From Candidatus Iainarchaeum sp. (GTDB taxonomy: Archaea; Iainarchaeota; Iainarchaeia; Iainarchaeales; JAAZKV01): a DNA stretch of 64,000 nt. A program made the position numbers and the translations under genes. This document shows positions 16,385 through 63,097 of this stretch, one piece after another. The stretch spans positions 36,235-100,234 of the forward strand of contig JAQVNZ010000001.1 in assembly GCA_028702895.1 (NCBI GenBank). Reading direction: 5' to 3'. Positions within the stretch are counted from its first letter, which is position 1, and each line of letters starts with the position of its first letter. A model generated the notes under the pieces. The model saw only the letters and a list, made by a program, of their open reading frames with translations. It ran no database searches and was not told the DNA's origin.

Positions 16385-16501
16385 TTTTATTTATGTTTTA
16401 TTATTATGTTTTTTAATTTTTTAAACACATTTTTGTTTTTAATTTTTTCTCCGGCATTAAACATTAAATTCTTTTATAAGTAACAAAAAAACACTTTTTT
16501 C

Positions 16502-17983: not shown

Positions 17984-18066
17984 TTTATATTTAATTACTA
18001 TAAAATCTTTGTTAAAAAGCTACTTTTTTAAAGCTTCTTGTCGAGATATATTATATTGGTGAGTTT

Positions 18067-18273
18067 ATGGTAAAATTAACTAGGTTTGAATTAACAAGAG
18101 TTTTGAGTGCAAGGTCATTACAATTGTCTTTGGGTGCTCCTCCATTAGTTAAAGGTACTAAAAGTATGTCTATGCTTGAAGCTGCTGAAAAAGAACTTGA
18201 AAGTAAGGTTCTTCCTTTGAGTGTTTTAAGAAAATATCCAAACGGGATAATAAAAAGAGTTGAATTATATTAG
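18067..18273 (+). CDS. rpoK: DNA-directed RNA polymerase subunit K (Rpo6/RpoK)
   Basis: LTRFELTRVLSARSLQLSLGAPPLV is the Rpb6/RpoK signature. A GGTGAG SD-like motif lies upstream. Confidence 0.85.
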   Translation: MVKLTRFELTRVLSARSLQLSLGAPPLVKGTKSMSMLEAAEKELESKVLPLSVLRKYPNGIIKRVELY

Positions 18274-18281
18274 GTGTTTTT

Positions 18282-18470
18282 ATGGGTAAATCAGTTTCTA
18301 AAGGTCTAAAATATCGTGGCGAAGTTTTGTTAAAAGAAATGCCAGAACATTTTGGAAAGGATTTTGAAAAAAATAAAGCTGAATTAAATAAAATTGATTT
18401 AGGTTTATCTAAAACGAGTAGAAATGTTCTTTCTGGATATATTGTTAGATTATCATCAAAAAAAGAATAG
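18282..18470 (+). CDS. rps17e: 30S ribosomal protein S17e (eS17)
   Basis: MGKSVSKGLKYRGEVLLKEMPEHFGKDFEKNKAELNKI....SKTSRNVLSGYIVRL aligns by eye to archaeal eS17 (MG..R...iKr.a..l.....~.F..DFe.NK........~SK..RN.iAGYit). An AGGTG motif lies upstream. Confidence 0.8.
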   Translation: MGKSVSKGLKYRGEVLLKEMPEHFGKDFEKNKAELNKIDLGLSKTSRNVLSGYIVRLSSKKE

Positions 18471-18503
18471 ATTTTTTGAAAAATAATTTATAGAATATTA
18501 TTT

Positions 18504-18557
18504 TTCTTAATTATATGACTTTTCTTAATTATATGACTTATCTTAATTATATTATTT
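18504..18557. repeat. 18-nt tandem repeat (2 perfect copies plus 1 degenerate) in a convergent spacer
   Basis: TTCTTAATTATATGACTT occurs at 18504-18521 and 18522-18539, followed by ATCTTAATTATATTATTT. The repeat lies between the 3' ends of rps17e and rad50. Confidence 0.6.
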
Positions 18558-18614
18558 TTTAAAATAAATCATTTTTTATAGCGTTTTTTATTAATGTCTT
18601 TTTTATTTTGTTAA

Positions 18615-20663
18615 TTAAATTATTGGCATAAGTTCTATTTTTGTTGCTTCGTCTAAATCTTTATTTCTCTCTAATAAATAAAGGTTACTAGTTGCTGCGT
18701 TTTCTAATTCTTTTTCGTGTGTTATTACAAAGATTTGTTCTACTAATTCGGGTAAAGAATTTTTTAACATTTGAGTTAATTGTTTTATTGTATTTTTATC
18801 AAGATTGTGGGTGGGTTCATCTAAAATAAATATTGATAATTGTTTGGTTAGAACCAATGCAAATGCAATTCTAATGCATATTGCTGCAACGCTTCTTTCG
18901 CCTCCACTTAATATTCCATCTACTCTGGTCCAAGTATTAGTTCTTGTTAGTACTTGCAAGTCATATCCATTTTCAACAATTGTTAATTTTGCATCAATAA
19001 AATCGCGGTAAGGGTATAGCACATCCCATGTTTGAGTTAAGGCATCATTTATTGTTTCAAGTAAATTTTCGCGTAATTCGTTTTGCGTTGCTATTAAACA
19101 ATTTTCAAAAACACCTAGTTTTTTTATTGCAATTTCGGATTTTTGTAAATCCTTTTCTATATTTTGGATTGAAGTTTTTATTTTTTTTATTCGTTGTATA
19201 TTTTCTAATAAATTTTTTATTAAATTATCATTGTTTTTTATTTTATCATCAATATTATTGAATATTGATTTTTTTTCAAAATAGTTTTTTCTTAAATCAT
19301 CCATTTTCATTTTATCAAATTTTAATTCAATAAGTTCTTTTTCTTTTAATGGTAAACTTTTTTCTAATTCTGCAATTTCTGTTAAATTTATTGTAATTTC
19401 TTCTGCTTCTTTTGTTAATCTTTCCAAAATAAAAATTCTTTCTTTTAATATGTCAATTTGTTTTTTATTATTATCAATATCATTTTTAAATAACTTTAAT
19501 TTTTCTAAATTTTCATTTTGATTAATTTCAATTAAATTAACTGTTTTTTTAATTTCAAGTATTTTCGCTTGTCCTTTTTTAATAATTTCATTTTTTTGTT
19601 CTTCGCTTAATTCTCTTAGGCATTTTGGGCATTTTTTGCTTATTTGTTTAATTTCGTTTTCTTCATTTTCTAATTCTCTTATAACATATCTGTGCACTTT
19701 TAGTTCTTCATTATTTTTTTTCTCTTTTTCTTCAAAAATATTTTTTGATTGCTCTATTTTTAAATTATCATTTTTTAGTTTTTCTAATAATTCTTTTTTT
19801 AGTTTGGTTTCAGTTAAAATATCTTCTTTGTTAATAATTTCTTTTTTTTTCAAACTCTCAACAAGAATTTCTTTTTTTGATTTTTTTCTATTTATTTCAT
19901 CTTTTAAAAAGTTAAATTGTTGTTCATTCTTTTCCATTTTTTCAAGTAAATCTTTTTTTTCTATTATTTCTTTTCCCAAAATTATTTTTTCATTTTTTAA
20001 TAATGTATTTTTTTCTTCTTCAATTTTAATTTGTTCGTTTAATTTTTCTTCTTCATAATCTTTTATAATGCTTGTTTGTTGTTTTATAGATTCATTTTTT
20101 TCTTTATTATCTCTTGTTAATTGGTTTTTCAAAGTAATAGAATTTTTTCTTGCAGTCTCGTATTTTTCTAATTCTAATAATTCATCAAATTTTTTCTTTC
20201 TTTCACTAGGGCTTAATTTTAGAAAAAAATCCATTTCGTTTTGTTCTGAATATGCTGCTCGACTAAATAATTCATAATTTAATCCTAATATTTTTTCAAT
20301 TTTTTCATTAACATCTTTTTGTTTTGGCCCGGCAATTAGTACATCGTTTTCATATAATTTTGATTCGTTTGTACCATTTTTTTTAATAATTCTTTGTACA
20401 ATATATGTTTTTGAATTATTTTCAAATATTATTTTTGTTTGTGCTTCATCGCATTCGTTTGGTTTATTCATTATTATTTCGTTTAATGATATTTGTTTAC
20501 TTTTTAATAGAGGAAAATTTCCAAATAGCGCGTAACTTAGGGCATTTACAATTGAACTTTTTCCAGAACCCATTACTCCAACAATAACGTTGGTGCCTTT
20601 TCCGAATTCTAATGTAGAGTCTTTGTGAGTTCGCCAATTTTTTAATTCAAGACTTTTAATCAT
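18615..20663 (-). CDS. rad50: Rad50-type SMC-like ATPase with a zinc hook
   Basis: It has N-terminal Walker A (IVGVMGSGKSSIVNAL), a long K/E coiled coil and a central CPKC zinc-hook motif. The C-terminal part has the signature LSGGERSVAAI and Walker B (IFILDEPTHNLD). Confidence 0.85.
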   Translation of the reverse strand: MIKSLELKNWRTHKDSTLEFGKGTNVIVGVMGSGKSSIVNALSYALFGNFPLLKSKQISLNEIIMNKPNECDEAQTKIIFENNSKTYIVQRIIKKNGTNESKLYENDVLIAGPKQKDVNEKIEKILGLNYELFSRAAYSEQNEMDFFLKLSPSERKKKFDELLELEKYETARKNSITLKNQLTRDNKEKNESIKQQTSIIKDYEEEKLNEQIKIEEEKNTLLKNEKIILGKEIIEKKDLLEKMEKNEQQFNFLKDEINRKKSKKEILVESLKKKEIINKEDILTETKLKKELLEKLKNDNLKIEQSKNIFEEKEKKNNEELKVHRYVIRELENEENEIKQISKKCPKCLRELSEEQKNEIIKKGQAKILEIKKTVNLIEINQNENLEKLKLFKNDIDNNKKQIDILKERIFILERLTKEAEEITINLTEIAELEKSLPLKEKELIELKFDKMKMDDLRKNYFEKKSIFNNIDDKIKNNDNLIKNLLENIQRIKKIKTSIQNIEKDLQKSEIAIKKLGVFENCLIATQNELRENLLETINDALTQTWDVLYPYRDFIDAKLTIVENGYDLQVLTRTNTWTRVDGILSGGERSVAAICIRIAFALVLTKQLSIFILDEPTHNLDKNTIKQLTQMLKNSLPELVEQIFVITHEKELENAATSNLYLLERNKDLDEATKIELMPII

Positions 20664-34868: not shown

Positions 34869-36785
34869 TCAAGGCTTACATTTTGTAAAGTTAGGTTGTT
34901 TTAAAGGTTGATTTTCAAGCGGGGAATATGAAAAAGCCCATGAACATTTAATTACTTTTGATACATTCCATTTGTTAATATCTTGATTAAACTGCGAGTC
35001 AGAAAACATTTGTTCCATGTTTGTTACGTTGATTGTATTCCAATCATTAATTGGGTGATTAAATTTCGAATGCCAAAACATAAATTTCATTGTTGTTACA
35101 TTGCGTGTGTTCCAGTTTTCGATTGGTTGGTTGAAGTCTGAATATGAAAACATGTTTTCCATTGTTGTTACGTTGCTTGTGTTCCAATTGCTAATGTCTT
35201 GATTGAATTTAGAATGGTCAAACATTGAAGCCATATTTGTTACGTTGCTTGTGTTCCAATCGCTAATATGTCCGTTGAATTGTGATTCATGAAACATTGC
35301 GTACATATTTGTTACTTTGCTTGTGTCCCAATTGTTTATATTTTGATTAAATTTTGAACCGTAAAACATTCCAAACATGTTTGTTACGTTGCGTGTATCC
35401 CAGTTATTTAGAGGGTAATTGTATGGTGAATATATGAACATATATTGCATATTTGTTACGTTGATTGTATTCCAATCATTAATTGGGTGATTAAATTTTG
35501 CTGCCCAAAACATGTTCTGCATATTTGTTACGCTGCTTGTATTCCAGTTATTTATTGGCTGGTTGAAATCTGAATATACAAACATTGCGAACATGTTTGT
35601 TACTTTGCTTGTGTTCCAATTACTAATATCTTGATTGAATTTAGAACTATTAAACATTTCACTCATCGTGGTTACGTTGCTTGTGTTCCAATTGCTAATA
35701 TCTTGATTAAATGTAGCGCCACCAAACATTGAAGCCATATTTGTTACGTTGCTTGTGTTCCAATTGCTTATGTTTCCGTTGAATTGAGAATTACTAAACA
35801 TCCCATTCATATTTGTTACATTGCCCGTATTCCAATTATTAATATTTTGATTAAATCGTGAATTAGCAAACATTTTTTCCATATTGGTAATATTCTTTGA
35901 GGCATCATCAAAAAAATCTGGACAAGAAACTTGTGTTAGAGTAGTGTTTGCAAACATGCTTCGTGCTGACGTTAATCCCGTAACCGAATTACTAACTGGT
36001 GTGTGAATATCTTTTAACATTTCCCCACTATTTTCAAAGGAGATTCTACTTGCTTTTCCTTTTAAAGAAATATTATAATCTCCTGGAGTGGGATAGGTTT
36101 TTATTTGTGTATCTCCAGGGGGTAAATTCACCCAACCCTGTCCTAATCCCCAGTCAACTTCCATTCCTTGAGCGCCATAAATAATAAATTGAAATTGTTC
36201 ATTATTTTTTGTAGTTTTTATTTGGAATGTAAATGGGGGTGTTGGTTTATCGGGGTCTATTAGGGGTTTTCCACATTTTCCTAGATAATTCGTATCTGTT
36301 CCTGCTTTTATAGCATAGCAACGATTATCATAAGTATTTCCGTCCAAACCACAAACCGGGATAGTGCCCGCGTTTAAACAATCGTCTTCTTCTGGTATTT
36401 CTGGATCGTCTGGCTCTGGTTCGCCAGTATAATTATTATTTAATATTATTTGCGAATTTTTAAAATTAGTAAATTTTCCTATTTTTTCTACTATTTTTTT
36501 TAAGTCAAAATAGTTATTATCTATTGTTGGGGGAATAGTTTGAACAAAAAATTTTGGTATTTCATTTTCTTCAACAAAAATATTTTGGATTATAACATTC
36601 TCGTTTTTTTGGTTTGATTGAACTAATAATTCACTTCGTATTAGCGTATATGCGTTTGTAACATTATATGTATTTAAAAAAAAGGATGATAAAATTATTG
36701 TAAATGTTATAATAACTAAAAGTATTATTAAACTTTCAAACGAAACTTGCCCTTTATTAAATATTTTTTTTTTCAATATAATCAA
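34869..36785 (-). CDS. Pilin-anchored surface protein: class III signal + Kazal-like domain + 13 DUF285/BspA-like repeats (putative adhesin)
   Basis: The N-terminus is KKIFNKGQVSFESLIILLVIITF. An acidic P/E linker follows, then a Kazal-like segment (CLNAGTIPVCGLDGNTYDNRCYAIKAGTDTNYLGKCG, nt 36273-36380). After that come 13 tandem 24-aa units with consensus MF..S.FNQ.I..WNTSNVTNM... The start is TTG, forming a TTGA overlap with the upstream gene. Confidence 0.75.
   Translation of the reverse strand: MIILKKKIFNKGQVSFESLIILLVIITFTIILSSFFLNTYNVTNAYTLIRSELLVQSNQKNENVIIQNIFVEENEIPKFFVQTIPPTIDNNYFDLKKIVEKIGKFTNFKNSQIILNNNYTGEPEPDDPEIPEEDDCLNAGTIPVCGLDGNTYDNRCYAIKAGTDTNYLGKCGKPLIDPDKPTPPFTFQIKTTKNNEQFQFIIYGAQGMEVDWGLGQGWVNLPPGDTQIKTYPTPGDYNISLKGKASRISFENSGEMLKDIHTPVSNSVTGLTSARSMFANTTLTQVSCPDFFDDASKNITNMEKMFANSRFNQNINNWNTGNVTNMNGMFSNSQFNGNISNWNTSNVTNMASMFGGATFNQDISNWNTSNVTTMSEMFNSSKFNQDISNWNTSKVTNMFAMFVYSDFNQPINNWNTSSVTNMQNMFWAAKFNHPINDWNTINVTNMQYMFIYSPYNYPLNNWDTRNVTNMFGMFYGSKFNQNINNWDTSKVTNMYAMFHESQFNGHISDWNTSNVTNMASMFDHSKFNQDISNWNTSNVTTMENMFSYSDFNQPIENWNTRNVTTMKFMFWHSKFNHPINDWNTINVTNMEQMFSDSQFNQDINKWNVSKVIKCSWAFSYSPLENQPLKQPNFTKCKP
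34938..35873 (-). repeat. Intragenic 72-nt (24-aa) tandem repeat array, 13 units, with a higher-order block duplication
   Basis: The units start at about aa 305 and run to aa 616 of the adhesin. Long near-identical DNA stretches recur at an offset of 432 nt (6 units), for example 35021-35080 versus 35453-35512. At protein level, units 2, 3, 5, 6 pair with units 9, 10, 11, 12. Confidence 0.85.
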
Positions 36786-37234
36786 CTACTTGTTATTGAA
36801 ATTTTATTAGAGTCTGTTTTTTCTATAACAATTGTTTTTATTCCATAATCAATAACATTTTCTGTACAATCAAGGGTTATTCCATTTCTTACCATAAATG
36901 TTTTTTTACAAATATTGTTTTCACAAAGATTAACATTTGTGTTATTGCCTGTTTTATTAATTTGTACTTCAAATTCAAAATTATTGGCACAGTTAATTTT
37001 TGTGTTATTTGGTATAAAAAGAGTTATTGTTTCTTTTGATCCTGTTCCCAATAAAGATATTTTATTAGTTATTTGCGTTAATTGTTGTGTTGCTAAATTA
37101 GCTTTTGAAATATTTTCAATATCTTCTATTATTCCTTGAGTATTTTCTATGATTGGTTTTGTTACTCCAAAAATATATATTATTAGTATTAATATTATGA
37201 AAATAAATTCTATTGTTGCTTGCCCTTTTTGCAT
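36782..37234 (-). CDS. Pilin-like protein with a KGQ class III signal motif (150 aa)
   Basis: It begins MQKGQATIEFIFIILILIIYIFG. The body is N/T-rich with 4 Cys. Confidence 0.6.
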   Translation of the reverse strand: MQKGQATIEFIFIILILIIYIFGVTKPIIENTQGIIEDIENISKANLATQQLTQITNKISLLGTGSKETITLFIPNNTKINCANNFEFEVQINKTGNNTNVNLCENNICKKTFMVRNGITLDCTENVIDYGIKTIVIEKTDSNKISITSS

Positions 37235-37242
37235 TCTTTCAC

Positions 37243-38334
37243 CTATATACTTAATATTAAGTTTATTATAAAATCTCCTAAAATAACACTTAGGATATAA
37301 CCTAAGAGTATTGTTGGAACAAACGGAATAGAATCTTTAATTAAAATAGTTTTTTCAATTAATCCTTGTTTTGATAATTTTTTTAATTCTTTTATTTCTT
37401 GTATTGTTAATCCGCATGCCCTCATTGAGGATATTATTTCTTTTTCTGAATTTAGCGTATTTTCTTTTATTTGTTTTATAATTTCCTTTAAACTTAATTT
37501 TTCTTTTATAATAACTTTTTTTCCTTTCCAAATTAGTGTTATTCCTGGTATCATTCCTTCTTTAAGATTTTTTATTAAAACTTTTTTTGACATTAAAATT
37601 TTCATTGAGGTCATTAGTTTTATTAATCCAAATAAAATAACTATGATTATTGTTAATGATAAAAGATTTTTAAAAAACATTTGATAATTTAAAAAAATTC
37701 CGATTATCATGCTTATGCTTGTTAATATAATTTTGTTTTTATTTAAAAAATTCCAAACAAAAAGAAAAATAAAAACTAAAAATATTTCTATAACGGTGTT
37801 TTGGATAAATAAATTTATTATAATATAACTTCCTGATAAAAAAAATGCTGTGTGTATTGCAATAATCGTATTTTTCTTCATGTCAAAAAATATTTTTTTT
37901 CTTTCTGTTTTATTATTTAATAATTTATATACTATGACAACTATCCCGTATGGCATGAATGCTATTAGTGAATATAAAAAAAGACTTATTGGAAATATGG
38001 GTAGGCTTGAATTTGTTAATAATCCAATTTTGATTAATGCGGGGGTGAACGGATTTAATGCGCCTAATGCCATGAATAATTTTACGTCTCCTCCAGCAAA
38101 AACTCCTAATTTCCATAATATCCAACCAAAAGAAAATCCAATACATAATCCAAGAAAAGAGTAGATTATTGGATAAATATTTAATTCAATTATTGATTGT
38201 ATTGCATAAATTGTTAGGCCAAGTATTGCTAATCCAAAATTTAATTTGTTTGGAACAATTCGTTCTTTTAAATCAGTGTATGTTGCGATTATTAATCCGA
38301 TAATGGAAATAATTATGGTTGTAATGAAAATCAT
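37243..38334 (-). CDS. Prepilin/preflagellin peptidase (A24 aspartyl protease; EppA/PibD/FlaK-like)
   Basis: Two catalytic Asp contexts are present: YTDLKERIVPN (D21) and FAGGDVKLFMALGA (D83, GxGD-like). The protein is multi-TM, with a soluble segment at about aa 246-334 and a terminal IPFVPTILLG. Confidence 0.8.
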   Translation of the reverse strand: MIFITTIIISIIGLIIATYTDLKERIVPNKLNFGLAILGLTIYAIQSIIELNIYPIIYSFLGLCIGFSFGWILWKLGVFAGGDVKLFMALGALNPFTPALIKIGLLTNSSLPIFPISLFLYSLIAFMPYGIVVIVYKLLNNKTERKKIFFDMKKNTIIAIHTAFFLSGSYIIINLFIQNTVIEIFLVFIFLFVWNFLNKNKIILTSISMIIGIFLNYQMFFKNLLSLTIIIVILFGLIKLMTSMKILMSKKVLIKNLKEGMIPGITLIWKGKKVIIKEKLSLKEIIKQIKENTLNSEKEIISSMRACGLTIQEIKELKKLSKQGLIEKTILIKDSIPFVPTILLGYILSVILGDFIINLILSI

Positions 38335-38468: not shown

Positions 38469-38645
38469 TTATTGTAGGATATTTTCAATTAATCTTGCTC
38501 TTTCTGATAATAAGTCTGCTTGTGCAGTTAATGCTATTTGTCTTAGTGTTTCAACAACCATTGCTGCGCTTATTGCTAGCATTATTCCAAATGCAGCGGT
38601 TAGTAAATATTCAAATGCTACTTGTGCTTTTTCTTCTTTTAACAT
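38469..38645 (-). CDS. Mini-pilin (58 aa) with a class III signal (DUF361-like AQ..FEYLL), no globular head
   Basis: The hand-translated sequence is MLKEEKAQVAFEYLLTAAFGIMLAISAAMVVETLRQIALTAQADLLSERARLIENILQ. It is absent from the ORF track because it is shorter than 60 aa. Confidence 0.6.
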   Translation of the reverse strand: MLKEEKAQVAFEYLLTAAFGIMLAISAAMVVETLRQIALTAQADLLSERARLIENILQ

Positions 38646-38681
38646 TTTTTCATCCTTTCTAACTTTTTTTATTTAAAAAAA

Positions 38682-38963
38682 TTATGTGCAATCCCATTTT
38701 TCTCTTAAAATATATTGGTTTTTTTCACAACATATAGTTTGAGTTGCTCCGCCTTTATTAGTGTCATTAAGATAACATCCACAATCTAAAGTGTTTGAAT
38801 CTAGTGTTACACAAAGATAATTGTATGTGCTATTTGTTCCAGTATCTGTTCCTGTGCCTATTGCTTGTGAAACAAATATTATTACTACTGCTACTACAAG
38901 AATTACTGCTCCGATGATTAGTAAGTATTCTATGGATGTTTGTCCAGATTTTTTATCATTCAT
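38682..38963 (-). CDS. Short type IV pilin (93 aa), class III signal + Cys-rich head (7 Cys)
   Basis: MNDKKSGQTSIEYLLIIGAVILVVAVVIIFVS carries the Q..(I/V)EYLL pattern of Epd-type pilins as I recall it. The head is ...YLCVTLDSNTLDCGCYLNDTNKGGATQTICCEKNQ..WDC. Confidence 0.8.
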   Translation of the reverse strand: MNDKKSGQTSIEYLLIIGAVILVVAVVIIFVSQAIGTGTDTGTNSTYNYLCVTLDSNTLDCGCYLNDTNKGGATQTICCEKNQYILREKWDCT

Positions 38964-39038
38964 ATTATATATAACAATATTTTTGTATTTAAAGTTTTGT
39001 TATTTTTAAAATATTGTTTTATTATTTTTTAATTATTA

Positions 39039-39317
39039 TTAGGGTGTAATATTAAAGTCCTTGCATTTGTTTGGCCAACCTGTCATATTGGTTAGTGTGC
39101 ATTTATTATTTGCCCAATTCCCGCCTGTTAACATGCATTCTTTTTGACATTCTAGTATTAGTGTGGTGTCTCCAATTTTTTCATCATTTAATGAGTCGGT
39201 TCCACTACTTGTTACGCCTACCATTGAGATTACAACAATTGCTACTACTAGTATTGCTGCGCCCATTATTAGTAAGTATTCTACAGCACCTTGTGCGTTT
39301 TCTTTTTTATAATCCAT
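39039..39317 (-). CDS. Short type IV pilin (92 aa), class III signal + Cys-rich head (4 Cys)
   Basis: The N-terminus is MDYKKENAQGAVEYLLIMGAAILVVAIVVISMVG. The head is ECQKECMLTGGNWANNKCTLTNMTGWPNKC. Confidence 0.8.
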   Translation of the reverse strand: MDYKKENAQGAVEYLLIMGAAILVVAIVVISMVGVTSSGTDSLNDEKIGDTTLILECQKECMLTGGNWANNKCTLTNMTGWPNKCKDFNITP

Positions 39318-39372
39318 TACTAATAGTTTACTTTAGCACTATTTAAATGTTTTTTATTTTTAAAAAAAGTAA

Positions 39373-39397
39373 TTGAAAAGGCGAAAGGCCTTTTCAA
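39373..39397 (-). terminator. Perfect 10-bp hairpin plus T-run, 13 nt downstream of pilin gene 39410..39667
   Basis: TTGAAAAGGC-GAAAG-GCCTTTTCAA is conspicuously GC-rich for this DNA. On the minus-strand transcript it is followed by ..TTACTTTTTTT. Confidence 0.55.
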
Positions 39398-39409
39398 AAT
39401 TTAATCTAA

Positions 39410-39667
39410 TCAGTTGTATGATGTACAATCGTAGTTGCCGCTAGGTACTATTGTTCCACTACATGTTTGATTTATTGAATTCCAATCAAATTTTTGATTC
39501 AAACAATCAACTTGGCATTTTTGTAGTGTTGGTAATTGGTCTACGTCAGTTCCGTCTGTTGCTCCTGAAGTTACACTAACTAATGCAATTATTACAACTG
39601 CTACAACAAGTATTGCTGCTCCGATGATTAGTAAGTATTCTATTGCTCCTTGTCCTGTTCTATCCAT
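39410..39667 (-). CDS. Short type IV pilin (85 aa), class III signal + Cys-rich head; candidate major pilin
   Basis: The N-terminus is MDRTGQGAIEYLLIIGAAILVVAVVIIALVS. The head is KCQVDCLNQKFDWNSINQTCSG....NYDC. A strong SD (GGAGGGG) precedes it, a long upstream spacer separates it from the previous gene, and it has its own hairpin terminator. Confidence 0.8.
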   Translation of the reverse strand: MDRTGQGAIEYLLIIGAAILVVAVVIIALVSVTSGATDGTDVDQLPTLQKCQVDCLNQKFDWNSINQTCSGTIVPSGNYDCTSYN

Positions 39668-39840
39668 TTTTTCCCCTCCGTTAATTTTAACAAAAATTCT
39701 TATTCTATTAAAGATTTTATTATTTTTAAATCTATTCTTTGACTTTAAAATATTGTTTTTAATTTTTTTTGAATATTGTGCTATTATTTTTGCGTTTTAG
39801 CAGATATTATTTTTGTAAAAGTTTTATTGGTTAGTATCTT

Positions 39841-39978
39841 TTATTGATTAATATCTTTTATTGCTTGTGTTGCAGATTGTGCAGTTGTTTTAATATATAT
39901 TGAAACCGTTGTTACCACAAATATTGCGCCAACGATTATTAGCAAATATTCTAAACTTGTCTGAGCTTTTTCATCCAT
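39841..39978 (-). CDS. Mini-pilin (45 aa) with a class III signal, no head domain
   Basis: The hand-translated sequence is MDEKAQTSLEYLLIIVGAIFVVTTVSIYIKTTAQSATQAIKDINQ. Its ATG overlaps the stop of the platform gene (TAATG), which suggests coupling. It is absent from the ORF track. Confidence 0.6.
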   Translation of the reverse strand: MDEKAQTSLEYLLIIVGAIFVVTTVSIYIKTTAQSATQAIKDINQ

Positions 39979-40886
39979 TAAAAAACACCTAGTAACATTA
40001 AACTAATTAAATAATTTGTTGCATAATATGTTACAAATGCTATTAGTATTAGTATTGGGATATATATAATACTTTTTCCAAATTTACCTTCTCTTATTAT
40101 AGACATCATTATTCCTGATGCGATTACTTCTATTATTAAATATGCTTGGATTAATAATAACATAAAATTAGATACGCTGGTTGTGTTATTAGCACTTCCT
40201 CCGACTAATTGTGTTATTGTGATTTGTGAGAATAAATTCATTATAGCAGTTATTTCTCCAAATATTAATGGGGTTATTATTCCTCCTGCTGCAATCATGA
40301 ACATGAATTGCATTGTAGTATTCGCTTTTCTCTCTTCTTTTAATCTATATGATTCTCTAACATCATCTGAAATATCTTCTAGTATTCCTGATAAGCTTGC
40401 ACCGGTTTTTATTGAATCAAGTAATACTGTGATTGTTCGTTTTACTAATTTAGAGTCAATTCTTTCTGCAAATCCTCGTAGGGAAGTGTCAATATTTTCT
40501 CCTTCCTCTAATCTAATTAATGCGATTTGCATTTCGTCTGATAATCTACCATATCCTGCGATTACAACTTCTCGTAAAGCACTCTCATAAGTGTCTCCTG
40601 CTTTGAGCGTGTCGGCCATTTGTTTTAATGCATCACTAAAATTATATTCTATTGAATCAATTATTGATTCTTTTTTCATGTAAGGGTATCCTAACATTAG
40701 TATTAGTGTTGCTGAAGTAAACGCTACTGGGAGTAAAGTAATTTCTTTTAATATTAACATATTTAAAATTAATGTTATAAATGCTACAAATAGAGTTGTT
40801 GCTAGTGTTAAACTAGCCCATACTTTTGAATTATATGGTAATTTTGCAAATCTTACCCAATTATCATATTTTGTTATTATATCCAT
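39978..40886 (-). CDS. Pilus platform membrane protein, single T2SS-F domain (EpdJ/K, TadB/C-like)
   Basis: It has the T2SS-F cytoplasmic domain pattern (DALKQMADTLKAGDTYESALREVV...YGRLSDEMQIALIRLEEGENIDTSLRGFAERI) flanked by TM segments. Confidence 0.75.
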   Translation of the reverse strand: MDIITKYDNWVRFAKLPYNSKVWASLTLATTLFVAFITLILNMLILKEITLLPVAFTSATLILMLGYPYMKKESIIDSIEYNFSDALKQMADTLKAGDTYESALREVVIAGYGRLSDEMQIALIRLEEGENIDTSLRGFAERIDSKLVKRTITVLLDSIKTGASLSGILEDISDDVRESYRLKEERKANTTMQFMFMIAAGGIITPLIFGEITAIMNLFSQITITQLVGGSANNTTSVSNFMLLLIQAYLIIEVIASGIMMSIIREGKFGKSIIYIPILILIAFVTYYATNYLISLMLLGVF

Positions 40887-40891
40887 TTAAA

Positions 40892-41986
40892 TCACATTTT
40901 TGGTTGTGCTGCATAAACCATGTATATCATTATTCCAAATACAATTGGCATAAAAATAATATAAATAAAAAACATTACTTCTGGTGTTAATGGAATGTTT
41001 TTGAATAAATCTTCTCCGGTTGTGGCGATTGGAGAATTTCTAATTGATCCTAGTATCATTACTGCTACTGGTAAAACTATTCCTACAAAAATAAATATTA
41101 CTGAAAAAAAATTCATTTGCTGTGAAAAAATTCCTATTCGGTTTCTCATTTCGGATGAAACATCTTCTGCAATATCATTCATTGTTTCAGATAAATTTCC
41201 GCCTATTCGCATAGCTCTTAAAATATGGTTAATTGTTTTTCGTAGTGGCATACTCTGCGTTCTTAGCGCAGTGTGTTTTAATGCTGTTGTAGTATCTGCA
41301 CCTTCTTCAATTTCATTTATGGTTCTAGAAAATTCTTCGCTTAAAACACCATAATCATTAATTGCAATTGCTTGTATTGTTTTATATAATCCAATTCCTG
41401 CTTTTAATTCTGTTGCCATGTGTCTTAGTGCAAATGGTAGTTCAGTAGATATTTTTGCACCCCTGTTTTTTGCAAGGTTTTTTGGAATTGTTAAAATAAA
41501 TATTGTTGAAATTACCCACATGATAAATCCAAGTAAGATGGGGAGGGTGGCTGCAAACAAAAGATCTTGTAATAATATTCCTATAAAAAAAACTATTATT
41601 ATTGTTGTTAGTGCAATTATAAATCCTGCTGCACTTGCTAATGCTAAATATTGATTTGGAGAATATCTTAAATTTGCAGAGTATAAATAGTATCCTATTT
41701 CATTACTTAATGGAAAATTTTGTAAAAAGTTTTTTATAGGATTTAATATTTTTTTTAATTTTAAATAAATGTTTCCAAGTGTTTTTGTTAAATTTGATCC
41801 AAATTGGTCTAAATCTTCTTCACTATTTAAATCAATTTTAGAATAAGAATTATCTAGGATTATTCCTCTTAATTCTTTTAAACTAGTATTCGCGTCTTCT
41901 ACTTCTATTCCTTCGTCTCTATATTTTTTTTTCATTGTTTCAACGATTTTACTTACTTCTTCTTCGTTTATAGAACTATTTTTCAT
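40892..41986 (-). CDS. Pilus platform membrane protein, single T2SS-F domain (second subunit)
   Basis: LPFALRHMATELKAGIGLYKTIQAIA.NDYGVLSEEFSRTINEIEEGADTTTALKHTA.RT.S..LRKTI..I is a T2SS-F domain. TM segments flank it. Confidence 0.75.
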   Translation of the reverse strand: MKNSSINEEEVSKIVETMKKKYRDEGIEVEDANTSLKELRGIILDNSYSKIDLNSEEDLDQFGSNLTKTLGNIYLKLKKILNPIKNFLQNFPLSNEIGYYLYSANLRYSPNQYLALASAAGFIIALTTIIIVFFIGILLQDLLFAATLPILLGFIMWVISTIFILTIPKNLAKNRGAKISTELPFALRHMATELKAGIGLYKTIQAIAINDYGVLSEEFSRTINEIEEGADTTTALKHTALRTQSMPLRKTINHILRAMRIGGNLSETMNDIAEDVSSEMRNRIGIFSQQMNFFSVIFIFVGIVLPVAVMILGSIRNSPIATTGEDLFKNIPLTPEVMFFIYIIFMPIVFGIMIYMVYAAQPKM

Positions 41987-43647
41987 TATTTTTCACCAAA
42001 ATTTCTTTTGCTAATAAAATCTTGTGATAGTTTACTAACTTCTTTTAATTCGCGAATATTGTTTTCAACAAGATTTTCTATAAATTGTTTTCTTAAATAT
42101 AATTCGGCTTCAAGTTGATCTCTTGATAATCCTGTAAAATCTCTTAATTGACTTAAATAATTACTGTCAACTATTGTTCTTTCTAAATAATCTTTTACTG
42201 CGTCTCTTTGAAATAATGTTTGTGTTTTTGGGTTGCCTTCTATTCCTCCATATACTTCTGCGATCTCACTTATTCGTCTAATTGTTCCTTTCTTTTTATC
42301 ATGATATCTGTGTTCTACTATTATTATGTCAAGCCCAGATAACATTATTTTTGGAACATTCATTGGCGGGTTAGTTACTCGTACTATTGTTTCTTCTGGA
42401 GAATTAGCATGAACCGTTCCTAGACAACCATCATGCCCTGTATTAATAGCAGTAAATAACGTGAATGCTTCTTCGTGTCTTACTTCTCCAACTATTATTC
42501 TATCGGGTCTCATTCTCAAAGAATTTTTTGTTAAAATATCCATTTTTAATTCACCTGATCCTTCAAGTCCGGGTGGTCTAGCTTCTAATCTAATCCAATG
42601 TTTTAAGGGTAAATTTAATTCGGCCGTGTCTTCAATAGTAACTATTCTTTCTCTTTCTGGTATGAATGATGCTAGTACATTTAAGAGTGTAGTTTTTCCT
42701 GATCCTGTTCCACCACTAATAAGCATGTTCGCTGGTTTTGTTCCTAGTCCATCAACACTTACCCATAGGAATGCTGCTGCTTCGCTACTTAGTGTTCCCA
42801 TTCTAACTAAATCAATTATTGAATAAGGGTCTTTACGAAATTTTCTTATTGTTAGTGTTCCTCCACTAATACTTGCAGGGGGGATTGTGGCATTAATTCT
42901 ACTTCCATCAGTTAATCTTGCGTCTAATAAAGGCGCTGATACATCTACTCTTCTTCCAACTTCTCTAGCAATTTTATTTATTAAATCCTCTATTTCTTGT
43001 TCTGAAAAAAATTCTATGTTAGTTTGCATCATTTCAAATTCTCTATGAAAAACAAAAACAGGTTTTTTTGGCCCAACAATCATTATCTCTTCTAATTGAT
43101 CGTCTTTTATTAGGTCATCTATTAATCCATATCCAACCATTTCTCTTACAACTGCGTCAGCGTAAAATGATATTCTTGTTGGGGGAATATTTAGTGATGG
43201 ATTATTTCTTATGATATCTAATATTTTTTGTTTATAGATTATTCGTCTCTCATCATTATTTCTTATTCTAAATGGTGCAATACTAATTAGTCTTGTTGTT
43301 GCTTCTTTTATTGTATTAATTATTTTTCTTTCAGCGGAGGTGGGTCTTAGTGTTGGAACAAAATAATATTTTAGTGCTTTGCCAGGGATTTCATAAATAG
43401 TTGTTTTATCATATTTTTTTAATTCTATTTTTTTCTCTTTTTCTAATTCTTTTTCAACTTCTGTTTTTTCTTTTCCAGATGGTTCGATTTCTAATTTTTG
43501 ATCTATTTCGCTGTTAATTTGTTCTTCAAATTCTTTTAAATCTTCTTTTTTTATTTCTTTTGCAACAGTTTCTTCAATATCTTCTTCGTTTTTTATTGAT
43601 TGTGCTTTTGTACTTTTCATTAAGTCTTCTAAATAATCAGTTGCCAT
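41986..43647 (-). CDS. Pilus assembly ATPase (FlaI/PilB/TadA/EpdL-like)
   Basis: It contains LLDARLTDGSRINATIPP...GTLTIRKF, Walker A SGGTGSGKTT, IEDTAEL, RMRPDRIIVGEVRHEEA and GHDGCLGTVHAN. The N-terminal ~90 aa are acidic coiled coil. Confidence 0.85.
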   Translation of the reverse strand: MATDYLEDLMKSTKAQSIKNEEDIEETVAKEIKKEDLKEFEEQINSEIDQKLEIEPSGKEKTEVEKELEKEKKIELKKYDKTTIYEIPGKALKYYFVPTLRPTSAERKIINTIKEATTRLISIAPFRIRNNDERRIIYKQKILDIIRNNPSLNIPPTRISFYADAVVREMVGYGLIDDLIKDDQLEEIMIVGPKKPVFVFHREFEMMQTNIEFFSEQEIEDLINKIAREVGRRVDVSAPLLDARLTDGSRINATIPPASISGGTLTIRKFRKDPYSIIDLVRMGTLSSEAAAFLWVSVDGLGTKPANMLISGGTGSGKTTLLNVLASFIPERERIVTIEDTAELNLPLKHWIRLEARPPGLEGSGELKMDILTKNSLRMRPDRIIVGEVRHEEAFTLFTAINTGHDGCLGTVHANSPEETIVRVTNPPMNVPKIMLSGLDIIIVEHRYHDKKKGTIRRISEIAEVYGGIEGNPKTQTLFQRDAVKDYLERTIVDSNYLSQLRDFTGLSRDQLEAELYLRKQFIENLVENNIRELKEVSKLSQDFISKRNFGEK

Positions 43648-43783: not shown

Positions 43784-45538
43784 TTATTTTTTTTCACTAA
43801 CTTCTTTTTTGATTTTACTAATAAAATCTTTTACCAAAATCGTTTCTTGTTCGCCATTTCTGTTTCTTATTGCAATGCTCTTTGTTTCAATTTCTCTTGC
43901 ACCAATTACTCCAATGTAAGGTGCTTTAATTTTTTGAGCATCTCGTATTCTATAACCAAGGGATTCGTTTCTGTTATCTAGGTTACTTCTTATTCCATTT
44001 TCTAATAATTCTTCATGAATTTTTTTAGCTTCATTAGAAAATTTGTCTGATACTGGAATAATTATTATTTGTTCTGGCGATAACCAAGTTGGAAATGCTC
44101 CACCATATTTTTCTATTAACATGGCCATTGTTCTCTCATAACATCCAATTGAACTTCGGTGTATTATGTAAGGGGTTTTCTTTTTTCCATCATTATCAAT
44201 ATATGTCATTTCAAATCTTTCTGGTAATGCGAAATCAATTTGAACTGTTATTATTGTATCTTCTTTTCCATACACATTTTTTGCTTGCAAATCTAGTTTT
44301 GGGCCATAAAATGCTGCTTCATCTTCTACTTCTTCATAATCTATTTTTAGATGATCCAATATTTTTTTCATTTCATTTTGTGAATGTTCCCATGCTGTAG
44401 GATTATTAATATATTTTCCTTTTTCATTTTTAGGATCCCATTTTGAAAATCTGTATGTTATATCATCTTTGATTCCGATTGATTCCATCACAAAATTTAT
44501 TAGTGAGATTACTGATTTGAATTCTTCTTCTAATTGTCCAGGTGTAACTATAACGTGTCCTTCGGAGAGAGTAAATTGTCTCACTCTTGTTAATCCATGC
44601 ATTTCTCCAGAACTTTCATTTCTAAATAATACTGATGTTTCAGCAAATTTTATTGGTAAATCTTTGTATGATTTTAAACCATTTTTATAAATCAAAAATT
44701 GGTAGGGACAAGTCATTGGTCTTAATGCTAATAATTCTTTTTCATTTTCTTGGTTTCCCATTATGAACATTCCATCTTTATAGTGTTCCCAGTGTCCAGA
44801 TATTTTGTATAAATCTGCTTTTGCCATATATGGCGTTCTTGTATAAACATATCCTCTTTTTTCTTCTTCGTCTTCAACAAATCTAGATAATATTTGAAAT
44901 AATTTTGCTCCGCGTGGCATTAGTAAAGGTAATCCTTGTCCTACTAATTCGTGTGTCATAAAAATATTTTGTTCTCGTCCAATTTTGTTATGATCATTTT
45001 TTTCAGAAGTTTCTTTTTTTTCTAACCACTCGTTTAACTCTTCTTTTGTTTTAAAAGCAATTCCATAAACTCGTGTTAATTGTTTATTTTTTTCATTTCC
45101 TTTCCAATAAGCACTAGAAATTTTTAATAACTTTATTGCGCCTATTTCTGAAATATTTTTTACGTGTGGTCCTTTACATAAGTCAATAAAATTTCCATTT
45201 GTATAAATGCTAACTTTTTTTTCTCCGCTTTGTTCTAATTCATTAATCATTTCTATTTTATATTCATTTTTTTCAAATAGTTTTTTTGCTTCTTCTATTG
45301 TTATTTCTTTTTTTATCATATCATCTTTTATTTTAATTATTTCTAACATTTTTTTTTCAAGTTCGATTAAATTATTTTCTTTCAATGTTTTTTCTAATTC
45401 AAAATCATAATGAAATCCTGTTTCTATTGGTGGGCCGATAGCGATTTTTACGGTTGGATAAATTTGTGTTAGTGCTTGTGCGAATACGTGTGCTGCACTA
45501 TGCCATATTTTTTCATTTTGTTTTTTTAATTCATCCAT
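43784..45538 (-). CDS. thrS: Threonyl-tRNA synthetase (bacterial-like architecture, no TGS domain)
   Basis: It starts at the editing/SAD region (WHSAAHVFAQAL), followed by the class II core (RVRQFTLSEGH..., FYGPKLD) and an anticodon-binding domain. I chose the ATG at 45538, preceded by a GGTGAT SD. The track starts at TTG 45550. Confidence 0.9.
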   Translation of the reverse strand: MDELKKQNEKIWHSAAHVFAQALTQIYPTVKIAIGPPIETGFHYDFELEKTLKENNLIELEKKMLEIIKIKDDMIKKEITIEEAKKLFEKNEYKIEMINELEQSGEKKVSIYTNGNFIDLCKGPHVKNISEIGAIKLLKISSAYWKGNEKNKQLTRVYGIAFKTKEELNEWLEKKETSEKNDHNKIGREQNIFMTHELVGQGLPLLMPRGAKLFQILSRFVEDEEEKRGYVYTRTPYMAKADLYKISGHWEHYKDGMFIMGNQENEKELLALRPMTCPYQFLIYKNGLKSYKDLPIKFAETSVLFRNESSGEMHGLTRVRQFTLSEGHVIVTPGQLEEEFKSVISLINFVMESIGIKDDITYRFSKWDPKNEKGKYINNPTAWEHSQNEMKKILDHLKIDYEEVEDEAAFYGPKLDLQAKNVYGKEDTIITVQIDFALPERFEMTYIDNDGKKKTPYIIHRSSIGCYERTMAMLIEKYGGAFPTWLSPEQIIIIPVSDKFSNEAKKIHEELLENGIRSNLDNRNESLGYRIRDAQKIKAPYIGVIGAREIETKSIAIRNRNGEQETILVKDFISKIKKEVSEKK

Positions 45539-45756
45539 TTTTATCACCAAGTATCAAATTTTTTCCTCAAAAAACTTTTTAAATTGTTTTTTTGAGTTTA
45601 AAGCGTGGTAGTAGCAAGAGTTGTCATTTTTAGTAGAATTAAATTATTACTTGCTTTTTCCATAGTAAATGTTTATTCTTTTTTGTATTTATATATAGTT
45701 TAATTTTTAGTGTAATAAAAAATACAGTGCTCTGAAATAAATTTGGCTAATATAAT

Positions 45757-62917: not shown

Positions 62918-63097
62918 ATGAGTAATGTTTTATTAGAAGAAAAAGCACAAATTTCAGTAGAACTAATAATTGTCCTTGCGGCGGTTGTTGCAGTAGTTTT
63001 AGTTCTTGTAAGTCAGTTACAAGCAACATCTTCACAAGGAGCCCAAAAATTAGAAAAAACTGCTGGTGACGTGTTCAAAAAAATTGATGATATATGA
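62918..63097 (+). CDS. Mini-pilin (59 aa) with a class III signal (second pilin cluster)
   Basis: The hand-translated sequence is MSNVLLEEKAQISVELIIVLAAVVAVVLVLVSQLQATSSQGAQKLEKTAGDVFKKIDDI. It has the same AQ....E(Y/L)(L/I) design as the mini-pilins at 38469 and 39841. It forms an ATGA overlap with the next gene. Confidence 0.6.
   Translation: MSNVLLEEKAQISVELIIVLAAVVAVVLVLVSQLQATSSQGAQKLEKTAGDVFKKIDDI

Follow-up and report, generated by a model that had tools for sequence, protein, structure and literature searches.

The closest described counterparts of the pilin array reported here are the Epd pilus of Methanococcus maripaludis and the bacterial Tad/Flp (type IVc) pilus, for the latter of which descent from an Epd-like system of archaea has been proposed (PMC6668835). 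EppA is a dedicated A24 peptidase of the long, 9-TM form (PMC4858521), and its substrates carry a leader of 5-13 aa with a terminal Gly, followed by Gln at +1 and Glu at +5 (PMC3875500); the processing sites RAQI and KGQV are on record (Table 1 of PMC4371748). The hallmark of Epd-like and Tad systems is the presence of two adjacent platform genes with one T2SSF domain apiece (PMC6668835). In Haloferax volcanii, each of the pilins PilA1-PilA6 is able to serve as the major subunit, and their adhesive properties differ (PMC4371748).

The DNA analysed here, a stretch of 64 kb referred to below as the window, comes from an uncultured archaeon of the Iainarchaeota (Diapherotrites, DPANN). In DPANN archaea, cell-surface appendages are believed to let the cells attach to hosts or surfaces, yet they are almost unstudied. 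We found that five short genes of the window very likely encode the pilins of an archaeal type IV pilus of the Epd/Tad-like kind. They belong to a single operon-like locus (34.9-43.6 kb, minus strand), which also contains genes for an ATPase, two single-domain T2SSF platform proteins, two larger proteins resembling pilins and an EppA-like prepilin peptidase (Table 1). The order of these genes is kept in dozens of Iainarchaeota loci across the phylum, and together they make up a compact and complete Epd/Tad-like parts list in a DPANN lineage. The kind of system is already known; what the locus contributes is a further clade and two small, as yet uncharacterised families of heads. Current understanding is extended rather than overturned.

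Table 1. Features of the pilus locus, in window coordinates. A slash marks the predicted processing site.
Feature	Coordinates	Strand	Size and remarks
Class III signal protein, predicted modular pilin or adhesin	34869..36785	minus	638 aa; Kazal-like and PKD-like segments, 7 DUF285 repeats
Class III signal protein (MQKG/QATIEF…), predicted minor pilin	36782..37234	minus	150 aa; most related loci have an orthologue of 146-208 aa in this place
EppA-like prepilin peptidase, putatively of the long form	37243..38334	minus	363 aa; Pfam Peptidase_A24, Arc_PepC, Arc_PepC_II
miniB, conserved over its whole length	38469..38645	minus	58 aa; 36 nt after pil93, own SD (GGATGA)
pil93, head of a conserved 6-Cys family (Y-x-Y-x-C…LDSNT…CGCY…CC…W-x-C), predicted specialised minor pilin	38682..38963	minus	93 aa
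25-nt promoter-like motif of pil93	38986..39010	minus	exact motif match; ends 22 nt before ATG, no SD
pil92, pil85 paralogue with the same 4-Cys head scaffold	39039..39317	minus	92 aa
25-nt promoter-like motif of pil92	39340..39364	minus	exact motif match; ends 22 nt before ATG, no SD
Terminator-like 10-bp hairpin and T-run	39373..39397	minus	directly 3' of pil85; 3' edge of the variable cassette, identical in both alleles
Polymorphic pil85 head cassette	39400..39551	minus	codon 39 to 10 nt beyond the stop
pil85, hypervariable 4-Cys head, very conserved stalk, predicted major subunit	39410..39667	minus	85 aa
SD GGAGGGG of pil85	39679-39673	minus	5 nt before ATG
25-nt promoter-like motif (TTTAAAAATAATAAAATCTTTAATA) 5' of pil85	39706..39730	minus	followed by a leader with SD; common to the headed pilins
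miniA, leader MDEKA/Q, helix and 18-aa tail, predicted minor pilin	39841..39978	minus	45 aa
Membrane platform protein 2, TadB/EpdJ/K-like	39978..40886	minus	302 aa; one T2SSF stretch, Pfam 57.9 bits
Membrane platform protein 1, TadC/EpdJ/K-like	40892..41986	minus	364 aa; one T2SSF stretch, Pfam 72.9 bits
Pilus assembly ATPase, T2SSE/FlaI/TadA-like	41986..43647	minus	553 aa; Pfam T2SSE 151.7 bits

With the M. maripaludis system (EpdA-E, EppA, EpdL, EpdJ/K) the locus shares leaders ending in Gly or Ala with Gln at +1 and Glu at +5 (PMC3875500, PMC4371748), a set of several short (~60-75 aa) and mid-size (130-156 aa) pilins served by a dedicated A24 peptidase, putatively of the long form, and a single ATPase with two platform genes of one T2SSF domain each (PMC6668835). 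In Methanococcus, however, the major pilin gene, the ATPase and platform genes and the eppA operon are found at separate sites (PMC3875500), whereas the window holds one compact locus. The M. maripaludis pilins also have no Tyr at +6 (PMC3875500), while those of the window have EY, and the heads encoded in the window are Cys-rich knobs.

The likeness to bacterial Tad/Flp pili consists in very short pilins with a processing motif of the G/xxxxEY type and a dedicated peptidase, in an ATPase resembling TadA (243 bits) and in platform genes split in the manner of tadB/tadC. Unlike Tad loci, the window locus contains no secretin or other outer-membrane parts, its mature proteins would begin with Gln at +1, and three of its subunits bear putative disulfide knobs. 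Membership of the pilins in the bacterial Flp_Fap family (PF04964) was considered and rejected: the best score, that of pil93, falls short of the 32.2-bit cutoff with 13.8 bits, and only one of 32 pil85/pil92 family members was matched, with E=0.079. The window genes would work like Flp pilins yet stand outside the Flp_Fap family. The combination of an archaeal EppA signature (Gln+1) with a bacterial Flp signature (Glu+5, Tyr+6) bears on the proposed archaeal origin of Tad pili.

PilA1-PilA6 of H. volcanii resemble the headed pilins of the window in being paralogues with a near-identical hydrophobic N-terminal domain and differing C-terminal parts (PMC4371748), and by this analogy they are the best functional counterpart of pil85 and pil92. 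They differ in being processed by PibD at sites of the [DR]A/VS type instead of [KR][GA]/Q (PMC4371748), in being encoded by scattered genes and not by an array within the assembly locus, and in belonging to a different pilus clade (PMC4371748, PMC4858521). A further parallel, which concerns pil85, lies outside archaea. Some bacterial type IVa major pilins fall into allelic groups, such as the PilA groups of Pseudomonas aeruginosa; they have a conserved N-terminal helix and a hypervariable, disulfide-stabilised C-terminal surface, and very different alleles are found at the same locus among strains of one species. The product of pil85 likewise has a conserved helix, a variable head predicted to be disulfide-bonded and divergent alleles at one locus, but type IVa heads comprise ~100 or more residues and form an alpha-beta roll, whereas the pil85 head is a ~45-residue knob without a structural relative in PDB.

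The machinery genes are distant from their characterised namesakes. The ATPase scores 280 bits against the NCBIfam FlaI model (cutoff 550), and its score against the TadA family is below cutoff as well. It is 54-84% identical to ATPases of Iainarchaeota MAGs; the nearest relatives outside the phylum, judged by identity in a sequence search (47-56%), come from Thermococcus, Methanobrevibacter and Hydrothermarchaeota, which are largely "clade 1" taxa (PMC4858521). The two platform genes agree with the Epd-like rule, being adjacent and having a single T2SSF stretch each. The peptidase has ~8-9 hydrophobic segments and the D21 and GGD83 elements, and it aligns end to end, though weakly (36 bits, cutoff 450), with the NCBIfam EppA model. 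Since the FlaI and EppA scores are far below the equivalog cutoffs, orthology of the ATPase and the peptidase to the Methanococcus proteins must be distant. Orthologues of the 638-aa protein in relatives are just 102-118 aa long and cover its N-terminal module.

An earlier sequence-only reading of this stretch called the five short genes pilin genes, and this holds: all five open reading frames (58, 93, 92, 85 and 45 aa) exist on the minus strand, and all encode class III signal-peptide pilins. In each, a short charged leader precedes [GA]/Q-x-x-x-E-Y-L-L and a hydrophobic helix. The same leader and helix pattern occurs in the 150-aa and 638-aa proteins, so that Gln+1 and Glu+5 are present in 7/7 class III proteins of the locus. 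Tyr follows Glu+5 at +6 in 5/5 window pilins and is found there in 175 of the 273 class III proteins of related loci, where position -1 is Ala or Gly in 271/273 and position -2 is Lys or Arg in 246/273. This signature agrees with the EppA substrate rule. Against the Pfam Class_IIIsignal model (PF04021, former DUF361; gathering cutoff 23.7 bits), pil93 (28.4 bits) and pil92 (23.8) score above the cutoff and miniA (22.4) and pil85 (22.3) just under it; miniB has no significant hit in Pfam, PF04021 included. Within the pil85/pil92 family, 32/32 members match the model at E<=0.1, the lowest E being 1.9e-8.

The stalks of the three headed pilins had been described as nearly superimposable. The core EYLLI(I/M)GA(A/V)ILVVA is indeed common to all three, but over the first 30 mature residues the pairwise identities are 73, 63 and 50%. 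At the DNA level the stalks are 88, 82 and 79% identical to their orthologues in locus L011 versus 73, 69 and 64% to one another within the genome. The stalks thus cluster by orthologue and not by genome, which means that the paralogues are old and have not been homogenised by gene conversion; concerted evolution of the stalks is ruled out by this grouping. Nucleotide comparison of the paralogues, suggested as a way of mapping a recombination boundary, yields a 68-nt stretch common to the three with 88% identity. Such a boundary between the paralogues is not supported, and the conservation of the stalks is that of old paralogues under purifying selection.

The heads do not all stand apart from each other, as had been supposed. 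Those of pil85 and pil92 are homologous, with an invariant C-x3-C…W…C…C scaffold: the four Cys can be aligned, as can the Trp and an aromatic residue near the C-terminus, and none of the four Cys columns varies across homologues (alignments A5 and A6). With its L011 orthologue, pil92 shares 83% identity over the stalk and 39% over the head; it is an old paralogue which may be an alternative or co-polymerising subunit. When pil92 alone was used as a query, one homologue was found, and profile searches were needed for more. The head of pil93 does form a separate conserved family, with 182 database proteins at E<=1e-3 and with C51, C61, C63 and C78 invariant in its alignment (A3); only a weak 26-residue similarity connects it with the other two heads. 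It is 70% identical to the L011 head, which is higher than the stalk would predict. The AlphaFold2 model of pil93 (pLDDT 79) has an all-helical head and gave no significant Foldseek match in PDB, while the pil85 model (pLDDT 78) consists of a stalk helix (6-38), a helix bearing C-x3-C (47-57) and a short hairpin; both are of moderate confidence (pLDDT 78-79, pTM 0.39-0.45). For the pil85 head, Foldseek found no significant relative in PDB, and a profile search of PDB sequences returned only a chance hit (E=4.6).

The heads contain six (pil93), four (pil92) and four (pil85) Cys residues, in place of the seven, four and five counted before. An even number of Cys is found in 62/62 Cys-bearing mature pilins from related loci (p=4e-19), and this parity, together with the invariant Cys columns, argues for disulfides in the heads. 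Iainarchaeota come mostly from anoxic habitats, and extracellular disulfides there need explanation.

Both mini-pilins, which the sequence-only reading called head-less and whose claim it tied to their conservation, are conserved and show coding-type substitutions, with differences at the three codon positions of 188/119/309 for miniA and 326/133/420 for miniB. A miniA-type gene occupies the same site in 52 of 72 related loci, and a miniB-type gene closes the array in 33 related loci; in a search of 1.84 billion representatives miniB matched nine 50%-identity clusters. Each represents a conserved family whose place in the locus is fixed, and neither is a degenerate copy. An amphipathic tail is seen in miniA (hydrophobic moment 0.54 versus 0.20 for shuffles) but not, by the same measure, in miniB.

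Expression signals differ within the array, as do evolutionary rates, which are very different among the five genes. The spacers of 75, 92 and 173 nt upstream of the headed genes were noted correctly before, but the SD-like motif ascribed to each of these genes is present in pil85 and absent from pil92 and pil93. All three spacers contain a 25-nt promoter-like motif that includes a TATA element and that, at <=2 mismatches, occurs nowhere but upstream of the three headed pilins. The motif and GGAGGG are kept upstream of the pilin at the second position of the array, the pil85 site, in L011, L005-L010 and other related loci, and pil93 orthologues commonly have a TATA-like box 21-22 or 30-31 nt ahead of them. 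From this arrangement of promoter-like motif and start codon, the transcripts of pil92 and pil93 are probably leaderless. A scan for sigma-70 promoters proved uninformative for an archaeon. No promoter of its own precedes miniA, which is coupled to the gene of platform protein 2, the stop codon of the latter overlapping the miniA start by 1 nt.

As judged from the protein families involved, the pilin precursors would be inserted into the membrane, the EppA-like aspartic peptidase of the locus would cut off the 4-11-residue leader after [KR][GA], baring Gln+1, and the ATPase with the two single-domain platform proteins would polymerise the hydrophobic N-terminal helices into the core of a filament. 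We infer cleavage, assembly and the division into major and minor pilins from the genes. The major, surface-exposed subunit is most likely pil85. A promoter of its own and a strong SD precede it, no other stalk is as well conserved (93% identity to the L011 and L098 orthologues, across genera), and its head evolves fastest (25-28% identity to the same two orthologues) and is replaced at the strain level. In three other lineage pairs, too, no segment of the locus evolves faster than the C-terminal part of the pilin at this site. The pil85 head would be a ~45-residue knob held by two disulfides and polymorphic between co-occurring strains, whereas pil93, miniA, miniB, the 150-aa protein and the 638-aa DUF285 protein would be minor pilins that prime or cap the fibre or bear adhesive modules. 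Of the earlier suggestions, that of major and minor pilins with disulfide-stabilised knobs fits best with the even Cys parity, the unequal rates and the differing expression signals. The pilus likely serves for attachment to surfaces or host cells and possibly, as in Methanococcus, also for DNA uptake. Because the major pilin of M. maripaludis and of bacterial Tad is a mature protein of ~45-62 residues (PMC3875500), the fibre could instead be made of miniA or miniB, as in Flp/Tad pili and with M. maripaludis EpdE, and the Cys-rich headed proteins would then be low-abundance decorations of the fibre or its tip. Such a fibre would accord with the very short major pilins of the Epd-like/Tad clade (PMC6668835), for example MMP1685 with 62 mature residues (PMC3875500), with the fixed, phylum-wide positions of both mini-pilins and with the full-length conservation of miniB, which is expected of a tightly packed subunit. 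We nevertheless consider it unlikely: miniA is promoterless and overlaps the platform stop codon, miniB follows just 36 nt after pil93, and it is the pil85 site that has the conserved promoter and strong SD and the most conserved stalk of all. Moreover, the pil85 site of most relatives encodes a Cys-free, Flp-sized precursor of 53-69 aa, so the rule of a short major pilin is already satisfied there. That the five proteins are pseudopilins, and the machine no adhesive pilus but a short pseudopilus that secretes proteins or takes up DNA, is improbable. For DPANN archaea, whose genomes are reduced, DNA uptake might be a necessity, and secretion and competence pseudopili are built from the same families. 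Natural transformation in M. maripaludis is reported to require Epd pilus genes (PMC10133366). But a surface that is exposed and interacts is suggested both by the strong diversification of one head and by the repeat-rich, pilin-like protein of 638 aa, and Pfam annotation of the locus revealed no likely secreted substrate and no component for binding or translocating DNA.

The evidence for head replacement comes from closely related contigs and is a new observation of this analysis: the pil85 head is polymorphic at the population level. Over 4.7 kb shared by the window and L083, 85 of 91 differences fall into the pil85 head region, the contigs being otherwise 99.9% identical. The alternative allele (91 aa) is present in L083/L093, L095 and L097, which come from other samples; its head is 34% identical to that of pil85 and 29% to that of pil92, its stalk is identical, and both allele types are found in sequencing run SRR8925826. 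The variable or interchangeable surfaces proposed before are thus supported only for pil85 and only at the population level, while pil92, pil93, miniA and miniB are invariant in near-identical contigs. The differences between the alleles span all four bases and include inserted bases, so they are not of the adenine-limited, indel-free kind made by DGR-type mutagenesis. Switching of heads within a cell in the manner of Neisseria pilE/pilS, whether the paralogues recombined with one another or with silent cassettes, would explain the sharp edges of a swap that runs from the stalk end to the conserved hairpin and the presence of both alleles in one run, and the 68-nt stretch shared by the paralogues could anchor the recombination. 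Antigenic or phase variation of this kind is very improbable, however: tblastn and blastn searches of the 64-kb window with the alternative head found no silent cassette, the matches being the resident pil85 and pil92 heads and chance, ~17 contigs hold two allele types and one point variant and no more, the stalks group by orthology with no sign of ongoing conversion, pil92 and pil93 do not vary among strains, and the alternative head is no mosaic of the resident ones. One of the chance matches lies inside a topoisomerase gene at 55.7 kb.

It is quite possible, and we propose it tentatively, that the head of the predicted major pilin pil85 is a hot spot of balancing or diversifying selection in natural Iainarchaeota populations, where whole cassettes between the stalk and the terminator hairpin are exchanged among lineages and coexist in one community. 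If this is true, the pilus surface would be the main arena of an arms race with receptor-using viruses or with host cells, and two previously undescribed families of disulfide mini-domains would be carried by Flp-sized archaeal pilins. Over longer times the pil85 site alternates between a Cys-free tail and knobs with 4, 6, 8 or 14 Cys. The strain-level polymorphism itself singles out a 150-nt segment from which population structure, or pressure by viruses or hosts, could be read in metagenomes.

The five short ORFs at 38469-39978, transcribed in the order miniA, pil85, pil92, pil93, miniB, are very probably the pilin set of an Epd/Tad-like pilus; pil85, pil92 and pil93 (named by their length) carry a Cys-containing C-terminal head on a conserved hydrophobic stalk, and miniA and miniB are short and head-less. 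In all five, a short charged leader is followed by [GA]-Q-x-x-x-E-Y-L-L and a hydrophobic stretch of ~25 residues. The Pfam family of archaeal prepilin-type leaders (Class_IIIsignal, PF04021; cutoff 23.7 bits) matched pil93 with 28.4, pil92 with 23.8, miniA with 22.4 and pil85 with 22.3 bits, and the same search gave no match for miniB.

Features of the pilus locus and other class III signal genes in the window
Feature	Position	Strand	Description
Threonyl-tRNA synthetase gene	43784-45550	-	
T2SSE ATPase	41986-43647	-	
Platform gene	40892-41986	-	one T2SSF domain; adjoins second platform gene
Platform gene	39978-40886	-	one T2SSF domain; adjoins first platform gene
miniA	39841-39978	-	45 aa
TTTAAAAATAAnAAAnnTTTAAATA copy	39706-39730	-	upstream of pil85
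pil85	39410-39667	-	85 aa
Hairpin	39373-39397		between pil85 and pil92
TTTAAAAATAAnAAAnnTTTAAATA copy	39340-39364	-	upstream of pil92
pil92	39039-39317	-	92 aa
TTTAAAAATAAnAAAnnTTTAAATA copy	38986-39010	-	upstream of pil93
pil93	38682-38963	-	93 aa
miniB	38469-38645	-	58 aa
A24 prepilin peptidase	37243-38334	-	363 aa; archaeal Arc_PepC domains
Class III signal protein	36782-37234	-	150 aa
Class III signal protein	34869-36785	-	638 aa; Kazal-like and PKD-like segments, seven DUF285 repeats
Class III signal gene	62918-63097	+	59 aa
Class III signal gene	63094-63507	+	137 aa

The array is enclosed by a complete pilus locus of the same orientation (window G+C 22-32%), bounded upstream by the threonyl-tRNA synthetase gene, which directly precedes the ATPase. 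The ATPase is 54-84% identical to those of Iainarchaeota/Diapherotrites MAGs, its next-nearest relatives being from Thermococcus, Methanobrevibacter and Hydrothermarchaeota (47-56%); the first two genera are represented in the archaeal type IV pilus group known as 'clade 1'/Epd (PMC4858521). EppA-dependent (Epd-like) pili are defined by two single-domain platform genes, a long-form peptidase and short Gln+1/Glu+5 pilins, and bacterial Tad pili are thought to derive from this group (PMC3875500, PMC4371748, PMC6668835). The window locus has platform genes and pilins of these kinds and a putative long-form peptidase, and would function in the manner of the Epd pilus of M. maripaludis and the Tad/Flp pilus of bacteria; where sequence and architecture could be tested, it agrees with Epd-like pili. 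Protein similarity is distant. The peptidase, with ~8-9 hydrophobic segments, can be aligned along its whole length with NCBIfam's EppA model, but at only 36 bits (cutoff 450); we therefore call it EppA-like rather than EppA. Three points are modestly new here: an archaeal Epd-like system with the Flp-like EY motif, two families of putative disulfide mini-domains not described before, and, in a DPANN population, a head polymorphism with sharp boundaries.

The sequence-only reading took the heads to be unrelated apart from their Cys content, which does not hold for pil85 and pil92, whose heads share a scaffold of C-x3-C, a Trp and two more Cys ahead of an aromatic residue. The Cys columns of this scaffold do not vary among eight close sequences and hardly do so among 32 database homologues; head identity between pil85 and pil92 is only 20%. 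In head-only BLASTP an alternative pil85 allele connects these two heads (E 1e-11 to pil85 and 1e-6 to pil92, only indicative values in a database of four sequences). The pil93 head, …Y-x-Y-x-C…LDSNT…CGCY…CC…W-x-C, defines a separate conserved family of 20 distinct sequences from the loci and 182 database proteins annotated solely as 'class III signal peptide-containing protein' or UPF0333. pil93, pil92 and pil85 have 6, 4 and 4 Cys, which corrects the 7, 4 and 5 reported earlier. Among related loci, the Cys number was even (2 to 14) in 62/62 Cys-containing mature pilins and odd in 0 (p=4e-19), strong indirect evidence that these Cys would form disulfides. AF2 models of moderate confidence give pil93 a long stalk helix with a small all-helical knob (pLDDT 79) and pil85 a helix bearing C-x3-C, then a short hairpin (pLDDT 78); fold and sequence searches returned no PDB relative, and no Pfam domain, for either head. 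In most relatives (L004-L009, L100-L121) the pilin at the pil85 position is Cys-free and ends in a ~25-residue D/N/L-rich tail (…DxNxAxxDLNxL…), and in others its head has 4, 6, 8 or 14 Cys, so that the knob must have been gained, lost or swapped repeatedly.

Stalk DNA of the three paralogues is 88, 82 and 79% identical to the respective orthologue in L011, a locus from the closest genome that shares this gene order, versus 73, 69 and 64% between paralogues of the window genome. Since the stalks group by orthologue and not by genome, the headed genes are old duplicates that selection on the assembly helix has kept alike; their likeness does not stem from gene conversion or recent recombination, for which a boundary between paralogues had been proposed as a check. 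Compared with the L011 orthologue, identity of the stalk and of the remaining part is 93 and 25% in pil85, 83 and 39% in pil92, 77 and 70% in pil93, and 70 and 67% in miniB. Of three other related-genome pairs, one clearly has its least conserved segment in the C-terminal part of the pilin at the pil85 position (60% versus 93.6% for the whole locus), and in the remaining two this part is among the least conserved. Paralogous pilins with a common hydrophobic domain and different heads, as in the window, are found in Haloferax (PMC4371748).

Within the overall model, pil85 is rather probably the major, exposed subunit; pil92 would be an alternative or co-subunit with the pil85 head scaffold, and pil93, miniA, miniB and the 150-aa and 638-aa proteins are predicted to be minor pilins. 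In bacteria, allelic groups of major pilins with hypervariable, disulfide-bonded heads are known. Exact-match searches with miniB and miniA retrieved strain contigs from more than 10 independent sequencing runs; along stretches of up to 8.3 kb these match the window at 99.9-100% identity. One of them, L083, has 91 differences in 4.7 kb, 85 of which lie within 39400-39551, from pil85 codon 39 to 10 nt past the stop, just before the hairpin. Its 91-aa pil85 allele, also present in two or three other runs, has a head only 34% identical to that of the window but keeps the four Cys and the Trp. Such head variation among strains is seen in pil85 and is absent from pil92 and pil93, which, like miniA and miniB, are identical in all strain contigs. 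In run SRR8925826 one contig ends within the 91-type head and another begins with the 85-type 3' flank, suggesting that both alleles coexist in this sample. A Neisseria-like system that switches heads within the cell is unlikely; no second copy of the alternative head is present in the 64-kb window. A diversity-generating retroelement is ruled out, as all four bases and indels are involved.

The main rival to pil85 as the principal subunit, though less probable, is a mini-pilin serving as an Flp-like fibre subunit. Both minis are real, conserved genes, as the earlier reading had supposed: among 72 related genomic and metagenomic loci (excluding 17 near-identical contigs of the window's own population), motif scanning gave miniA-type genes in 52 and miniB-type genes in 33, and nine clusters of miniB relatives turned up among the 1.84 billion representative proteins searched. 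Differences from the window copy by codon position 1/2/3 (188/119/309 for miniA, 326/133/420 for miniB) are fewest at position 2 and most at position 3, as expected of coding sequence. The window pilins do not belong to bacterial Flp in the Pfam membership test. In the whole 64-kb window the 25-nt AT-rich motif TTTAAAAATAAnAAAnnTTTAAATA (2 or fewer mismatches) has just three copies, one ahead of each headed pilin; there is none for miniA, which overlaps the platform gene stop codon, or miniB, which starts 36 nt after pil93.

The headed genes do have the long upstream spacers described before (75, 92 and 173 nt), but of the SD-like motifs proposed for each only GGAGGGG before pil85 stands, pil92 and pil93 having none. 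The motif ends 22 nt from the ATG of pil93 and pil92 and 38 nt from that of pil85. As the archaeal TATA box lies ~25 nt upstream of the transcription start, this spacing predicts that the pil92 and pil93 mRNAs are leaderless and that the pil85 mRNA has a short leader. Conservation of the motif and GGAGGG extends to other genera, upstream of the gene at the pil85 position. The segment preceding the TATA-like box could serve as a common regulator site besides the promoter. The hairpin between pil85 and pil92 is a perfect 10-bp one, TTGAAAAGGC…GCCTTTTCAA, with a coding-strand T-run; several short strain contigs (L096, L097) end at or just before it, and L085 starts just upstream.

Gene order is fixed in related loci: platform, miniA-type, one to four 'GQGAIEYLLIIGAAILVVA' pilins whose C-termini vary strongly, 6-Cys pilin, miniB-type, peptidase, a ~150-aa and then a ~110-aa protein. 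Headed pilins occur as identical or near-identical tandems in some relatives, namely L038 (10209-10499 and 10593-10883), L012 (8177-8473 and 8490-8807) and L106 (1033-1293 and 1418-1618), so recent duplication does occur at this position; the two L106 copies do not differ in the stalk or in the first part of the head. In L011, a 1349-aa class III signal-peptide protein (15791-19840, +), its sole weak Pfam match being Peptidase_M26_N, is inserted between the pil85 and pil92 orthologues; the window lacks this gene. The 638-aa protein (signal peptide …NKG|QVSFESL…) looks like a modular pilin with an acquired adhesin-like domain; related loci have at its position only 102-118 aa, equivalent to its N-terminal module, and strain contigs tend to end within its repeats, near 35739. 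The plus-strand class III signal pair, overlapping by 4 nt, stands alone, far from any assembly genes, and probably encodes further substrates of the pilus-locus peptidase; homologous pairs lie at the edges of loci L021 and L046.
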